A DNA stretch of 64,000 nt, taken from Minisyncoccota bacterium (GTDB taxonomy: Bacteria > Patescibacteriota > Minisyncoccia > Phycocordibacterales > BOKC01). Positions within the stretch are counted from its first letter, which is position 1. Every line of letters starts with the position of its first letter. Location: the NCBI GenBank assembly GCA_030583745.1, contig CP129473.1:442783-506782 (forward strand), given 5' to 3'. This document shows positions 1 through 23,005 of the stretch, in pieces. Both the position numbers and the translations under genes were made by a program. The notes beneath the pieces were generated by a model. That model was not told the DNA's origin. It saw only the letters and a list, made by a program, of their open reading frames with translations, and did no database searches.

Positions 1-641
1 GAGCACCATTGCTGGTGCTCGGCAGGCCTTATCCCGAAGTTACGGCCGCTTTTTTGCCGAGTTCCTTGGGGACCTCTCACTCGTTCGCCTTGGTCTACTC
101 GACCTGACTACCTGTGTCGGTTTTGCGGTACGGTCCAAACTTGTTTAATCTTAGAAGATTTTCTTGGAAGCGTGCTTTGTGAAATTTTATCCCCCGAAGG
201 TTCAAATTTCCGGCCTGCTTGAATTTATGATGCCCGGATTTTCCTAGGCATCGTTCTCACAGGACGAACGCAAATCCAATAATGCGCTCCACATACTACA
301 CTTCGTCCCTCCATAGAAACAAATTTGGGTCACGGAATATTAACCGTGTGTCCATCACCTACGGCTTTCGCCATCGGCTTAGGCCCGACTAACCCTTCCC
401 TGATTGTCATCGGGAAGGAAACCTTAGTCTTTCGGCGTGGCGCGTTCTCAGCGCCATTGCGGTTACTTGTGCCAACATTCTTACTTCTTGACGCTCCAGT
501 GTGGGTTACCCCTTCACCTTCACAGCAGACAAGAATACTCTCCTACCACCCCTCACATGCAAGCACGTGAGGGGTCCTCAGTTTCGGTACTATGCTTAGC
601 CCCGATCATCTTTGGCGCAAAATCTCTGGATGAGTGAGCTG

Positions 642-684
<43 letters not shown>

Positions 685-1195
685 CATTGTCGGAGAAATT
701 TCACAACCTTCCTTGCACTTAGCATAGATTTAGGGACCTTAACTGGAGATCCGGGCTGTTTCCCTTTCGACCAGTGGAGCTTAGCCCCCACAGTCTAACT
801 GCCAAGCTATATTCTTCTAGTATTCGGAGTTTGATAGGTTTGACGAGATTTCTCCCTATTCAAACCTTCCAGTGCTCTACCCCTAGAAGGAACACTTGAC
901 GCTAGCCCTAAAGCTATTTCGGAGAGAACCAGCTATTACCAAGTTCGATTAGCTTTTCACTGCTTACCACAAGTCATCCGAAGGAGTTGAACGACCTAAC
1001 GGTTCGGGCCTCCTCCCGCCTTTCGGCGAGATTCACCCTGCTCATGGCAAGATCACTTGGCTTCGGGTCTGATGTATAACACCATAATTCGCCCTATTCA
1101 GACTCGGTTTCCCTATGTCTCCACGCTCGCGCGCTTAGACAAGCGATATACATCAACTCGTTGGCTCATTCTTCAATAGGCACGCCGTAACGGAC

Positions 1196-1309
1196 GCATC
1201 ACGCGAAGCGCGATGCCAGGCTTTAGGAAATTAGGCTTTAGGCTCTAGGAAATTCCTAGGGCCTAGTGCCTAATGCCTAGCGCCTAACATCACATTCCAT
1301 GTGATGCAC
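1196..1309 (-). other. Insertion in 23S rRNA with terminal inverted repeats GCATCAC...GTGATGC; candidate intervening sequence (IVS) at helix 25
   Basis: About 115 nt absent from the conserved 23S core. TAGG-rich internal palindrome (ctaggaaattcctag). The ends pair as a closing stem. Confidence 0.5.
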
Positions 1310-1369
1310 CCGCTCTGACTCTTTGTAGGCATATGGTTTCAGGTCTATTTCACCGCCCTCACCGGGCTG

Positions 1370-1409
<40 letters not shown>

Positions 1410-1613
1410 TCTAACGATATTTAGCCTTACCGGTTAGTTCCGGCAGATTCACCCGAGCTATTGATGTCTCGAGTTACTCAAGAATAACAGCAAAGGAGTT
1501 TTTCTTGTTTTCGCCTACGGGGCTATCACCTCCTAGGGCTTCTCTTTCCAGAGAATTCGGCTAACAAAAAAATATTTTTTACTCCTCTGGCTAGGCCACA
1601 CTGTCATCTTACA

Positions 1614-1746
1614 ACCCCCAACCGCATCACGCCAAGCGCGATGTCTGTAGGCACTAGGTGCTAGGATGTTAGGCGCTAGCTTTTTACTAGAACCTAAATC
1701 CTAATTTCCTAAAGCCGGCAGTATCACACGCAGTGTGATGCGGTCG
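1614..1746 (-). other. Second insertion in 23S rRNA with a 10-bp terminal inverted repeat ACCGCATCAC...GTGATGCGGT; candidate IVS at helix 9 region
   Basis: Same terminal motif as the first insert (GCATCACGC-AAGCGCGATG). Lies about 240 nt from the 23S 5' end. Confidence 0.5.
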
Positions 1747-2371
1747 GATTTGGGCTCCTTCCTTTTCGCTCGCCGCTACTAAGGAAATACTTATTAGTCT
1801 ATTTTCCTCCAGGTACTGAAATGTTTTACTTCCCTGGGTACGCAATCCGCCTCATCGGCGGATCAATGTGCAAGCACATTGAGTTTCCTCATTCGGAGAT
1901 CTCCGGATCAAAGGTTGCTAGGCACCTCCCCGAAGCATATCGCCGCCAAGCCGCGTCCTTCATCGCTCGTTAGAACCAAGGCATCCACCATACGCCCTTG
2001 AATTCCCATCAGGAAATTCAAAAACCGCATAACTCTTTCCGCTAACTAGCGGAAAGAATGATTTTGCTCTCTTTTTTACAATTGTCCTACGTTCTTCACG
2101 TAGGATTACCTTTTCTGCCTACGACAAACAAAGACCCCATGTCACCATAAGTGGCATAAACGTTGTCGCGACAGGATTAAGTTGTCAAAAATCAGGATCC
2201 CAACCTTTTACAACCTTGTCTTCCGGCCGAGCTCTACTTTTACAAACAGCGCTCGGCCGAACAACAAAAAACCGCTATCTCAAGCGGGTTTTACTAGCAA
2301 ACAATGACTGAAATCACCTTCGCCGCTTGAGTGTGTTTAATAAAAAAATATTTAACATAAGATTGTGTTCT

Positions 2372-4829: not shown

Positions 4830-5321
4830 TTAAGATTTTTTCTCCGCTATTTGGTTTAACGAAATCGCTAATCTCTGAATCGGAGAATTTATAAGATTAA
4901 CAAACTGCGAATAAAGAATTTTCTTTGAAGGAATCCTGGCTAGAGCTAACATTTCTTCTTTGCCCAAAATTTTGCCTTCAAAAATGCCACCGATTATTGA
5001 GAACTTTCCTTCAAATTCTTTTTGGATAGAATTTGCTTGCCTTCCGGCTTCAAGGGGTTCTACACCAAGAGCGTGAACAATGCTAAGCTCACCTTGGAAT
5101 TCTGGGGTCTCCCCAAAACCACTGTCAGCAAGCGCTTTTTTGACCAAAGTCTTTTTTGCTACCTGATACGACACACCCGCTTCCTTGAATTTCTTTCTCA
5201 AAGAGGTAGTTTCAGATACATTTAGACCATGGAAGTTGGTGAAAATCACCTCGGCACCTGAAGAGAATACATTCTTCAAGCCCTCAAGAACCTGTGATTT
5301 TTTTTGTTTTGTTATAGCCAC
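4830..5321 (-). CDS. rplJ: 50S ribosomal protein L10
   Basis: L10 fold signature; located immediately upstream of rplL. Confidence 0.85.
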   Translation of the reverse strand: MAITKQKKSQVLEGLKNVFSSGAEVIFTNFHGLNVSETTSLRKKFKEAGVSYQVAKKTLVKKALADSGFGETPEFQGELSIVHALGVEPLEAGRQANSIQKEFEGKFSIIGGIFEGKILGKEEMLALARIPSKKILYSQFVNLINSPIQRLAISLNQIAEKKS

Positions 5322-5597
5322 AAATACGTAAGTATTATCCCAACGCTAATAATAAATCGACCTCTTTTAAAAGGCCTAAACAAAAAATGAATTTACCTCG
5401 AGAGGCTAGAATTTAATTAAGACTTTTCAGTCACCTCTTGTCTCTGGCCTTATAGATTAGATATTAATTGACCGTATCTTTAAAGTCAAGTTAAATCGCC
5501 AGGAAAAGGATGAGAACAATGCTTGTTGAAATTATCAACAAGAAACCAAAAATAAATTTTAAAAAAGCTCTGCTAAAATACTTTTTCATTATTCAAC

Positions 5598-10726: not shown

Positions 10727-10870
10727 ATAACTCTAAAATTAGGGTTTGGGGTATGGGGGTTGGGGTTTAGGGTATGGGGAAATACAAAACTAAACGCTGA
10801 TCTTCTAGACCGCTCCAACCCAATTTACCTATACCCTATTGGCTGTCCCCTATTTGGCTGTCCCCTATTT
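10727..10870. repeat. Copies of a dispersed TTTAGGG/GGGTATGGGG repeat family in inverted arrangement
   Basis: ttagggtttggggtatgggggttggggtttagggtatgggg ... cctataccctattggctgtcccctatttggctgtcccctatt. Confidence 0.6.
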
Positions 10871-15991: not shown

Positions 15992-16555
15992 ATGTTGCAA
16001 TACAACGAAATCACGGAGAAAAAATTTATAGAGCTAGACGGCGAGCCGTATGAAGTTTTAAGTTCGCACGTTTTCCGAAAACAGCAAAGAAAGCCGGTCA
16101 ACGCTACTAAATTAAAAAATTTAATAACTGGCAAAGTTACCGAACGGTCTTTTCATGTTTCCGAAAAAGCCGAGGAAGCTGATCTTCAGAAAAAAGAAAT
16201 AAAATTTCTATATTTAAACAAGGGTCAATACTGGTTTTGCGACCCAGACAGTCCGCGCGACAGATTCTTTTTTGGAGAAGAAATGATTGGGCCACAGGGC
16301 AAATTTATGAAAGAAAATTCTTTGGCCGAAGCGCTCGTGTTTAATGAAAAAATTATAGGCATCAAGGTGCCGATAAAAGTTGAATTGGCAGTGAAAGAGT
16401 CTCATCCTGCAGTCAAAGGTAATACCGCCCAAGGCGCAACTAAAGAAGCTGTTTTGGAGACCGGGGCGATAGTTCAGGTGCCGCTTTTCATCAAAGAGGG
16501 CGATATTTTAAGAATCAACACCGATACCGGAGAATATGTGGAGAGAGTAAGTTAG
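15992..16555 (+). CDS. efp: Elongation factor P
   Basis: KFIELDGEPYEVLSSHVF...KPVNATKLKNLITGK...VQVPLFIKEGDILRINTDTGEYVER. Confidence 0.85.
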   Translation: MLQYNEITEKKFIELDGEPYEVLSSHVFRKQQRKPVNATKLKNLITGKVTERSFHVSEKAEEADLQKKEIKFLYLNKGQYWFCDPDSPRDRFFFGEEMIGPQGKFMKENSLAEALVFNEKIIGIKVPIKVELAVKESHPAVKGNTAQGATKEAVLETGAIVQVPLFIKEGDILRINTDTGEYVERVS

Positions 16556-16670
16556 GGTCTAGAGTTTAGCCAATAGGGTGTAGAAATTAACCTCCAGAAA
16601 TCATAGGGAGATTAGCGCAAGTAGTAGCATCCTCTATTGGCTAGTGGCTATACCCTAAACCCTATTTCTG
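16551..16670. repeat. Inverted pair of TAGGGT-TAGCCAATAGGG repeats flanking a 47-bp spacer between convergent efp and rpsR (MITE-like)
   Basis: gttagggtctagagtttagccaatagggtgtag ... cctctattggctagtggctataccctaaaccctatt. Confidence 0.6.
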
Positions 16671-16862
16671 TACGTAGGGTAAAAGACCCATAAAACGAGC
16701 GCGTTTTACGGCCATAGCAAGTTTTCGCTGATTCTTAGCTGAAACCCCAGTCCTTTTTCTAGCTATTATACGGCCATGAGGATTGAGAAATTTCCTTAGA
16801 ATTTCTACATCCTTATAATCTATGTGTTGGATATTATTTTGGGTGAAAAAACATTGGGTCAT
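16662..16862 (-). CDS. rpsR: 30S ribosomal protein S18
   Basis: [49 protein letters not shown]. Confidence 0.9.
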
Positions 16863-16880: not shown

Positions 16881-16913
16881 GATTATAGTCAGTAGTCAGT
16901 AGTAAGTCAACTG
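16881..16913. repeat. TAGTCAGTAG repeat flanking the 4HB gene (left copy)
   Basis: gattatagtcagtagtcagtagtaagtcaactg; inverted partner at 17271-17303 and a related copy at 22786-22806. Confidence 0.5.
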
Positions 16914-17248
16914 TTCACTATTTTATTCAACATTTTCATAACTTCCTCAAGTAAGTTGTCTATTTTTACACAATCAGATTCTTTAATAAATTCAAGTCTT
17001 TTAGCTATTTTTACTTGTGTTTCCAATTCAGCGCCAGAGCCGAATGATATAAGAAAAAATCTTTTAACTTCATTTTTACCCCCACGCCTACTGCCTTCAG
17101 CAATATTAGAAGGAATAGATACAGCGGCTCTTCTCATTTGAGAAGTGAGACCATATAACTCTGATTTAGGAAATTTATTTGTTATCTGGTAGATCTCTAC
17201 TACCAATTCCATAGACTTCTGCCAAACTACAAGATTCTCGTAACCCAT
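16907..17248 (-). CDS. Four-helix-bundle protein (TIGR02436 family, historically the '23S rRNA intervening sequence protein')
   Basis: LVVWQKSMELVVEIYQITNKFPKSELYGLTSQMRRAAVSIPSNIAEGSRR...FLISFGSGAELETQV. Confidence 0.8.
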   Translation of the reverse strand: MGYENLVVWQKSMELVVEIYQITNKFPKSELYGLTSQMRRAAVSIPSNIAEGSRRGGKNEVKRFFLISFGSGAELETQVKIAKRLEFIKESDCVKIDNLLEEVMKMLNKIVNS

Positions 17249-17270
17249 TTTTGTTGTTGCCTTAAATCTA

Positions 17271-17303
17271 CAGACTACTCACTACCTTCTACTGACTAGA
17301 ATG
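17271..17303. repeat. TAGTCAGTAG repeat flanking the 4HB gene (right copy, inverted)
   Basis: agactactcactaccttctactgactagaatgg. Confidence 0.5.
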
Positions 17304-17760
17304 GTATATCATCTGGATTCACTTCCTCTTCCGGATATGCAATCTCTCCGTCATCCTTGGTGCTTTGTTTTTTGTCGCCAGAGTTAGGAGAAGAAGAATC
17401 GTCCTGTGAATTTGGAGACGTAAAGCCACCTCCAGACTTGGCACCAAATTGCACCCGGTCGGCAACAATTTCAGTCCTGTATCTTTTTTGGCCGTCTTGG
17501 CCGTCCCAGCTTCTAGTCTGAATTCTACCTTCAACCAAAACATTTTGACCTTTCTTCAAATATTGAGCCGAGGTTTCAGCTTGACGTCCAAAAACTACGA
17601 CATTATGAAATTCCGTGTTCTCCTGTTTCTGACCATCTTTGTCCTTCCAAACTCGATTGGTAGCAACGCCGAGAGTGCAGACTGCGGTACCGGAAGGCAG
17701 AGATTTAAGTTCCGGATCTCTTGTTAAGTTGCCTATGATTAAAGCTTTATTTAAATACAT
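17296..17760 (-). CDS. ssb: Single-stranded DNA-binding protein
   Basis: OB fold ALIIGNLTRDPELK...NVVVFGRQAE...; acidic tail ending DDIPF. Confidence 0.9.
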   Translation of the reverse strand: MYLNKALIIGNLTRDPELKSLPSGTAVCTLGVATNRVWKDKDGQKQENTEFHNVVVFGRQAETSAQYLKKGQNVLVEGRIQTRSWDGQDGQKRYRTEIVADRVQFGAKSGGGFTSPNSQDDSSSPNSGDKKQSTKDDGEIAYPEEEVNPDDIPF

Positions 17761-17824: not shown

Positions 17825-18355
17825 TTATTCACTGACCACCAACTTTTCTATACTTTTATCAATCTCTTCTTCGGAAACCGGACCCAGTGCCGCTTCTTCC
17901 GCTTGTCTTGCGCTTTTCGCCTCCCTGTCCTTTCTGACTGCTAACTTGTGAGAATACAAAGTATTTTCTTTGACAGTCTCGATCAGGAGAAATCTAATAA
18001 CGTTTAAATTATTTTGGAAAGAGTTTTTGATCGCCAACATCTTCGACGGTTCAATTTCAAATTTTACCCAACCAAAGTAGGCCTGACTGTATTTTTGGTT
18101 TTTATTGTCAATTTTTTTGACCATTTCATAAGAAAGTGGTCGCAATCTGGGAAAATCTTCGGAAATAAAAATACCACCAAATTCTTCGATGGCTGTTTTC
18201 AGCGCCGAAACCTCTTCCGGCAATTTTTCTTCGGCGATAGATGGCGACAAAAGAAAACTAGCTTCGTAAACCCTTGCGTCTTGGGTTTCGGTTTCTTCTT
18301 GGTCCTCTTTTTGATCTTTTACTTCTGTTTCTTGCATAGGCAAATAGGTTAACAT
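17825..18355 (-). CDS. rpsF: 30S ribosomal protein S6 (with N- and C-terminal extensions)
   Basis: YEASFLLSPSI...LKTAIEEFGGIF...PLSYEMVKK...AYFGWVKFEIEPS; sits in an rpsF-ssb-rpsR arrangement. Confidence 0.75.
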   Translation of the reverse strand: MLTYLPMQETEVKDQKEDQEETETQDARVYEASFLLSPSIAEEKLPEEVSALKTAIEEFGGIFISEDFPRLRPLSYEMVKKIDNKNQKYSQAYFGWVKFEIEPSKMLAIKNSFQNNLNVIRFLLIETVKENTLYSHKLAVRKDREAKSARQAEEAALGPVSEEEIDKSIEKLVVSE

Positions 18356-18371: not shown

Positions 18372-18412
18372 CAACCCGGATTAGGGTTTAGGGTTTAGGG
18401 TATAGCCAATAG
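18372..18412. repeat. (TTTAGGG)n-like repeat copy: attagggtttagggtttagggtatagccaatagg
   Basis: Seen directly in the sequence. Confidence 0.7.
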
Positions 18413-22770: not shown

Positions 22771-22924
22771 TTTTAAATAATAGCATAAATTGGTGGCTAG
22801 TCAGTAGTGAGTGGTTTTTAGAAAAATCAGCAAAAAATGGTTGGGTAGTCTTGCAACATTAGGACACTTGCTACACTCCATACAACACAACTCTTTACCA
22901 GACCATTTACCACCAAAATCAATC

Positions 22925-22962
22925 TCCTTTCAAACAATTTAAGACGGCCGTCTTAAATTGTT
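22925..22962. repeat. Perfect palindrome TTCAAACAATTTAAGACGGCCGTCTTAAATTGTTTGAA (ACGGCCGT-core hairpin family)
   Basis: Seen directly; the same 8-nt core occurs at 38590-38624 and 39147-39179. Confidence 0.7.
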
Positions 22963-23005
22963 TGAAATTAAATTAATTGAATTATTTATATCAAATGCAT
23001 CAAAA

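Follow-up and report, generated by a model that had tools for sequence, protein, structure and literature searches.

The DNA stretch analysed here, referred to as the window, has a length of 64 kb and a G+C content of 40.6% and belongs to a Paceibacteria (CPR/Patescibacteria) genome. On its minus strand, ORF and profile searches placed rpsF (S6; 17825-18355) as the first gene of an operon, followed by ssb (17296-17760, with an intact C-terminal DDIPF tail), a gene encoding a 113-aa four-helix-bundle (4HB) protein (16907-17248) and rpsR (S18; 16662-16862), while efp is located on the opposite strand and converges on this group. A sequence-only reading of the window had proposed that a TIGR02436 gene interrupts the rpsF-ssb-rpsR operon between ssb and rpsR, and this was confirmed by the gene order and by the profile scores. 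The 4HB protein matched PF05635 with 135.3 bits (cut-off 33.8; E 1.2e-39) over profile positions 1-106 of 106 and TIGR02436 with 129.9 bits (cut-off 24; E 4.3e-38), and it belongs to this family above the curated cut-offs over the full domain. PF05635/TIGR02436 is the '23S rRNA intervening-sequence protein' family, also known as S23p, whose usual home is the intervening sequences (IVSs) of 23S rRNA. A sequence match further indicated homology of residues 3-112 to PDB 2GSC chain A (E 7.9e-25), the solved structure of the pentameric four-helix-bundle protein XCC0516. No further copy of the 4HB gene was found in the window by tblastn, and a search for membership in a defence system gave zero PADLOC matches.

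The 4HB gene lies in the loop of a long-range stem. The two arms of this stem, an inverted repeat of 33 nt at 16882-16914 and 17270-17302, are 76% complementary and essentially coincide with the inverted copies that had been reported to flank the gene at 16881-16913 and 17271-17303. The earlier description could be refined, as the arms consist of tandem heptamers and not of a single 10-mer. Exact matches to TAGTCAGTAG were located at 16886, 16893 and 22798 on the plus strand and at 17289-17298 on the minus strand; when up to one mismatch was allowed, there were 6 matches where 1.3 were expected, a number reached by 1 of 100 shuffles. In the mRNA sense, the 5' arm (17268-17302, minus strand) is composed of TAGTCAG, TAGAAGG, TAGTGAG, TAGTCTG and TAG. 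This heptamer array spans 17298-17268 with all five TAGs in phase; ssb terminates at the first of them (17296-17298), and the array contains stops in all three reading frames. The 3' arm (16882-16906, minus strand) reads CTTACTA, CTGACTA and CTGACTA followed by TAAT; these three CTNACTA units, reverse-complementary to those of the 5' arm, begin 1 nt past the stop codon of the 4HB gene. The duplex of both arms had a free energy of -32.5 kcal/mol, compared to -13.8 ± 3.1 kcal/mol for shuffled arms (0 of 500 as good; z -6). The minimum free energy and centroid folds predicted for a 461-nt RNA both enclosed the ORF with the arm stem, and the two arms are thus predicted to pair into an imperfect stem of ∼30 bp around the ORF.

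Because a T-run is absent after it, the 3' arm is not an intrinsic terminator. It does contain a near-consensus sigma-70-type promoter sequence, TTGACT-N17-TATAAT (16882-16910, minus strand; 11 of 12 matches), which faces rpsR and ends 20 nt ahead of its ATG. Judged from its sequence, this site may function as a promoter; one other equally good site was present in the 64-kb window, at 2399-2372, and simulations gave 1.45 such sites per window. This second site (TTGACT-N16-TATAAT, 11 of 12 matches, minus strand) is located ∼360 nt upstream of the 5' end of the 23S gene and no 16S gene lies between the two. It is likely an rRNA promoter.

The ssb-rpsR spacer was compared with that of 80 other Paceibacteria species encoding SSB proteins with 62-81% identity, the best genome match of the window SSB being a Candidatus Paceibacter MAG (81% identity). 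In these species rpsR directly follows ssb, mostly with a gap of 0-130 nt, and in none of the 80 was a 4HB gene found between the two genes. The insertion is therefore lineage-specific. This comparison, which the sequence-only reading had put forward as a check, showed that the insert is absent from the spacers of related species and that a recent ancestor of the host species acquired the cassette in the ssb-rpsR spacer, exactly at the ssb stop codon. No direct duplication was seen at the junctions of the insert in the window. In one of the 80 species (L071), a divergent 4HB gene immediately follows rpsR and has a 27-nt inverted repeat of its own on its flanks. The empty spacers of six species (L008, L019, L024, L054, L077 and L085) hold tandem arrays of 7-9-nt units or short hairpins of their own, such as TTAGGCG, CTAAGCG and TTAGGGA inside a TTGGAAATT/AAATTCCAA stem at L008:3444-3531. 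Such arrays may have been left behind by cassettes that were lost, or may have arisen independently as separate elements.

Within the host species, all eight contigs analysed carry the insert at the same site and with identical arms, and seven of them were retrieved as encoding an SSB identical to that of the window. The 4HB ORF is broken in three of the eight, by a stop codon in place of W9 in L003 and by a -1 frameshift in L006 and L007, the L006 allele additionally carrying a 158-bp insertion. This insertion (L006:4772-4932) interrupts the 4HB gene, is G+C-rich with two hairpin modules and an apparent TA duplication, and has no counterpart in the window or in the other strains; it looks like a small MITE-like element. 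Intact 4HB alleles had a pN/pS of 0.15, with values of 0.02-0.25 for the neighbouring genes. This purifying selection, together with the good conservation of the family, argues that the 4HB protein is not simply junk. At the same time the ORF is dispensable, as broken alleles segregate in the population. The insert is now fixed in the species. Presence/absence or orientation polymorphism was not observed among the eight contigs, which therefore provide no direct evidence of mobility, and there was no sign of recent mobility.

The surroundings of other 4HB genes were surveyed at 80 metagenome loci with homologues of 47-68% identity to the window protein, which were chosen by similarity and do not constitute a census of the family. 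For each gene, the 90 nt upstream were compared with the reverse complement of the 90 nt downstream, using a threshold of z > 4. Complementary flanks were detected for 59% of 79 4HB genes and for 7% of 157 control ORFs at the same loci (median scores of 25 and 14; Mann-Whitney p = 3e-19), and are about eightfold more common around 4HB genes than around control ORFs on the same contigs. The arms of the homologues are arrays of 7-nt, less often 8-nt, units, the 5' arm being G/T-rich and the 3' arm complementary to it. Flanks of the type that had been proposed for inspection at other 4HB copies were thus present, but unit sequences vary among cassettes, even within one contig (L159, L122 and L151). 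Cognate arms had a median score of 26 compared to 12 for non-cognate arms, and 54 of 83 cassettes had a cognate arm that outscored 95% of the non-cognate arms. The arms do not represent conserved terminal repeats or recognition sequences.

The commonest in-phase trinucleotide in these arrays was TAG and the commonest array length was five. Four or more in-phase TAGs were present in 34 arrays; of these, 22 supply the stop codon of the upstream gene through one of their TAGs, 19 of them through the first, where a random frame would give roughly equal thirds. The orientation of the cassette matched that of both neighbours in 43 of 59 cases and was antisense to both in one, and the median spacers to the neighbours were 53 and 38 nt. 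The neighbouring proteins (116) fell into 165 Pfam families, with a slight excess of sugar epimerase/dehydratase operons, and among the 25 commonest of these families there was no recurrent partner and no mobility enzyme (transposase, integrase or reverse transcriptase). A 4HB gene was also found on 17 viral contigs, with complementary flanks in 10 of the 14 that were examined. On L151, a gene of the PF13366 family (PDDEXK_3, PD-(D/E)XK nuclease family; 4955-5329, 124 aa) also has complementary flanks (score 34) and may be a second type of cargo of such hairpin cassettes.

Members of the 4HB family are 60-70% identical across CPR lineages. The closest homologues of the window protein (68-74% identity) are located at unrelated loci, namely between secE and nusG, between holB and glmS, after pilMNO and after lexA, and their arms have a GTAG core every 7 nt, like those of the window cassette. 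In non-orthologous contexts, the sharing of arm 6-mers rose from 0.035 at a protein identity below 40% to 0.20 at an identity above 70%, and arm similarity and protein identity were correlated (Spearman 0.23; Mantel 0/500). As the arm sequence tracks the 4HB phylogeny and the complementarity of cognate arms is kept, gene and arms are inherited together and have also relocated together. The earlier proposal that the 4HB gene travels as a small cassette is supported by these unrelated contexts and by the co-variation of arms and protein.

A third copy related to the arms had been reported at 22786-22806. The match to TAGTCAGTAG is indeed present at 22798, but it lacks an inverted partner and is part of a solo array of two units (TAGTCAG and TAGTGAG; 22798-22811), whose local fold was not significant (z -0.5). 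For these two reasons it was rejected as a second hairpin. The solo array precedes an AI-2E transporter gene by 28 nt, is conserved in eight strains and also resembles a -35 box. In L177 (1-90) it has three units and an unrelated upstream sequence, and homology to the window breaks exactly at the array. Several contigs terminate at a nearby perfect palindrome (22917-22978).

A dispersed family of arrays with TTAGGGT, ATAGGGT and TAGCCAA units was observed at gene and operon boundaries of the window (10737-10788, 10823-10868, 16553-16583, 16634-16664, 18382-18412, 31789-31829 and 34987-35038). Some of these form inverted pairs. One pair, 16634-16664 and 18382-18412, brackets the entire rpsF-ssb-4HB-rpsR group with 31-nt arms that are 1717 nt apart and 84% complementary (96% in a 24-nt core); its units are TAGGGTT, TAGGGTA, TAGCCAA and TAG, and relative to the operon this pair and the 4HB arms are of opposite polarity. 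Another pair (31789-31829 and 34988-35028; 88% complementary, 3.2 kb apart) flanks two genes. The convergent spacer between efp and rpsR (16552-16660) contains an ORF-less hairpin with five in-phase TAG heptamers in its 5' arm (TTAGGGT, CTAGAGT, TTAGCCA, ATAGGGT and GTAGAAA), of which the first TAG is the stop codon of efp, as is the case at ssb; its fold was weakly better than that of shuffled sequences (z -1.95). Elsewhere in the window, a G+C-rich 63-nt unit is present in 2.1 tandem copies with 95% identity (58019-58150), adjoining a tRNA gene (58151-58235).

IVSs with an S23p ORF occur in the 23S rRNA of Coxiella burnetii and also of Leptospira, Brucella and Xanthomonas (PMC4990558). The 23S gene of the window (1-2011, minus strand) contains two inserts, both without an ORF. 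The first (1201-1308, minus strand; 108 nt) is located in a hairpin loop at position ∼574-600 of the LSU model, which we read as helix 25 from the model position. It consists of the units UUAGGCG, CUAGGCA, UUAGGCA, CUAGGCC and CUAGGAA, a 2-nt loop and the complementary units, and folds with -68.5 kcal/mol (z -8.3). The second (1624-1738, minus strand; 115 nt) is located in a hairpin of the 5' domain at model position ∼283, has arms of xUUAGGx heptamers and folds with -70.5 kcal/mol (z -8.9). Both are near-perfect hairpins of xTAGGxx heptamers with the G/T-rich arm on the 5' side, which is also the polarity of the 4HB cassette. The two inserts are linked by a 47-nt inverted repeat (85%) and share GCAUCAC...GUGAUGC outer sub-stems, so that they look like one element family in two different 23S helices. 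The sequence-only reading had considered the cassette of interest alongside these IVS-like inserts, and the heptamer-hairpin build that both inserts share with the cassette bears this out.

Taken together, the insert is best explained, with moderate confidence, as a hairpin cassette of the IVS type that resides in an mRNA operon rather than in 23S rRNA and whose stem is probably processed by RNase III. The unit comprises a 5' arm of about five G/T-rich TAG heptamers, a four-helix-bundle (S23p/Avd-like) ORF and a complementary 3' arm, and its transcription would result from read-through of the host operon. In analogy to the IVSs of Coxiella, Leptospira and Salmonella, the stem could serve as an RNase III substrate, and the ORF RNA would be cut out of the rpsF-ssb-rpsR transcript. 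The tandem repeats might, again by analogy, allow pairing of the stem to be restored in another register after a gain or loss of units. Expression of rpsR would be kept up by read-through and by the near-consensus promoter in the 3' arm. A signature-motif scan of the 64-kb window, which is a mere piece of the genome, detected no RNase III gene (rnc). Mismatches compatible with G.U pairing numbered 43 in the sense and 60 in the antisense RNA (p = 0.11); as this shows no preference for the sense RNA, the pairing could equally be selected at the DNA level.

It is conceivable, at a rather low probability, that the 4HB protein, whose solved homologue is a ring-shaped homopentamer, recognizes the (U)AG units, five of them in phase, in the 5' arm of its cassette. 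This would turn the cassette into a self-recognizing protein-nucleic-acid module. The resemblance in this case is to the TRAP ring, which reads spaced GAG/UAG triplets. If this were true, the cassette could control its own processing, or spread without a transposase into stop-codon-proximal spacers and rRNA loops, and bacterial rRNA IVSs would be decayed members of this cassette class.

Three other explanations were weighed. The arms could be host sequence, i.e. generic intergenic hairpins (terminator- or REP-like, or processing sites), with the 4HB gene sitting between two of them or inserted in the loop of one. Many arrays of the window lack a 4HB gene (16552-16660, 18376-18407, 31789/34988 and 10738-10870), the empty ssb-rpsR spacers of six species hold tandem 7-9-nt repeats of their own, and intergenic arrays, including convergent pairs, are known from Xanthomonas, Nostoc and Beggiatoaceae (PMC4692102, PMC4679880). 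Such hairpins are plausible as a background, but as an explanation of the cassette arms we regard them as unlikely, given that the flanks of 4HB genes are enriched eightfold relative to control ORFs, that the arms co-vary with the 4HB phylogeny across unrelated contexts, and that the TAGTCAG units of the cassette differ from the common TTAGGGT/TAGCCAA family of the genome. The 4HB protein could instead be a domesticated product with a function for the cell, such as a factor that associates with nucleic acids or ribosomes and is expressed together with S6, SSB and S18, with the arms controlling translation or transcript stability. The pN/pS of 0.15 within the range of the neighbouring genes, the sense orientation, the 60-70% identity across CPR lineages and the relatives in translation-related operons (secE/nusG in L170; directly after rpsR in L071) would all fit. 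This reading is nevertheless very improbable, since 80 related species lack the gene in this operon, three of the eight contigs from the host species carry an inactivated ORF between arms that are still identical, and the homologues are surrounded by functionally unrelated neighbours (165 families).

The inverted arrays could also act at the level of DNA, as recombinase-binding or cruciform sites (similar to attC sites or invertible segments) at which an enzyme encoded elsewhere excises, integrates or inverts the gene. The absence of integrases and transposases among the 25 commonest of the 165 neighbour families, the 43:1 excess of operon-sense orientation, which argues against inversion, the variation of the arms among cassettes, which is unlike recombinase sites, and the lack of presence/absence or orientation polymorphism in eight strains make such a recombination cassette quite unlikely, even though the inverted repeats enclose a single gene, the wobble test gave no RNA preference, 19 of 34 arrays begin exactly at a TAG stop in the manner of a target site, homology of L177 breaks exactly at a solo array of TAGTCAG-type units, and 4HB cassettes are present on viral contigs as well. 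Three established element classes were rejected. A MITE or IS-type element was dismissed because the arms differ among cassettes, non-cognate arms are unpaired, a target duplication was not seen and no transposase is among the 25 commonest of the 165 neighbour families. For an integron gene cassette, the repeats are on both sides and mutually complementary, the cassettes are solitary in ordinary operons, and no integrase was found among the same 25 families. The accessory protein Avd of diversity-generating retroelements (DGRs) was rejected on its profile scores (NF033474, 31.2 bits with a cut-off of 80; PF22296, 32.5 bits with a cut-off of 40); the window contains no DGR template/variable repeat pair or long direct repeats, and a reverse transcriptase is not among the 25 commonest of the 165 families neighbouring the homologues.

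The preferred reading, an IVS-type cassette in an mRNA operon, bears on a question that has been open since about 1990, namely the origin of bacterial rRNA IVSs and the role of their conserved ORF. The genome combines three forms: an ORF-carrying hairpin in an mRNA operon, ORF-less hairpins built alike in the 23S gene, and solo arrays. The survey, a sample biased to the relatives of the window protein, suggests general rules for PF05635 genes: they reside in heptamer-armed hairpins, lie in sense orientation inside operons, have an array that usually starts from the preceding stop codon, and have arms that co-evolve with the gene. If these rules hold for the whole family, IVSs would occupy a single niche within a far broader class of small hairpin cassettes, and the roles of the stem and of the protein could be tested in mRNA contexts. 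The annotation of CPR genomes is affected as well, since the inserts split conserved operons and rRNA genes. A link between PF05635 genes outside rRNA and flanking paired heptamer arms was not found in the literature, of which coverage was incomplete, so that a prior description is possible. Intergenic heptamer arrays (PMC4679880, PMC4692102) and the IVS-S23p element (PMC4990558) have each been described separately.

Among known systems, the intergenic arrays share the 7-nt tandem units of the cassette arms. TAACTGA arrays were described in Beggiatoaceae, Cyanobacteria and Bacteroidetes (PMC4679880), and GGGAATC and GGGGAYT heptamers in Xanthomonas and Nostoc, with 70-75 convergent inverted heptamer pairs in Xanthomonas (PMC4692102). 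Like the arms, these arrays occupy intergenic spacers, often abut start or stop codons and contain stops in all frames, and some lie in ribosomal-protein operons (PMC4679880, PMC4692102). In the published arrays, however, a single unit dominates the genome and no link to a 4HB gene was drawn, whereas the units of 4HB cassettes are specific to each cassette and pair with their complement on the other side of the 4HB gene. The likeness to Avd of the Bordetella phage BPP-1 DGR is limited to a homologous four-helix-bundle fold with weak profile matches. ORF-less IVSs of the Salmonella type, together with the 23S pair of the window, are long near-perfect hairpins in helix loops, those of the window consisting of xTAGGxx heptamers with the G/T-rich arm on the 5' side; they differ from the 4HB cassette in having no ORF, in their unit sequences and in their location in rRNA.

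The closest counterpart is the helix-45 IVS of Coxiella burnetii, in which a 28-bp terminal stem encloses an S23p ORF in its loop, the ATG is preceded by GACAGAT heptamers whose copy number (two or three) varies among strains, and RNase III cleaves at the first repeat (PMC4990558). The Coxiella ORF is decaying, with a 176-bp deletion in one strain, and the same study presents 'remnant of transposition' and 'mobile element' as ideas for IVSs that are still to be tested (PMC4990558). The S23p protein of Coxiella is reportedly missing from proteomes. The host of the window cassette is an mRNA operon spacer, ssb-rpsR, and not helix 25 or 45, i.e. the cassette is not inserted in the loop of a 23S helix. 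Also unlike the Coxiella IVS, both of its arms are visibly heptamer arrays, its first unit doubles as the upstream stop codon and its 3' arm is promoter-like. Cleavage by RNase III is proven for the Coxiella IVS and inferred for the window cassette. Both elements encode the same protein family, terminal inverted repeats enclose an ORF in the sense of the host transcript in both, and tandem heptamers precede the ATG, the five in-phase TAG heptamers of the cassette counting as agreement on this point. In both, some strains have a decayed ORF but retain the RNA element. With the exception of location, all features of the Coxiella IVS that can be checked in sequence are matched by the window cassette.
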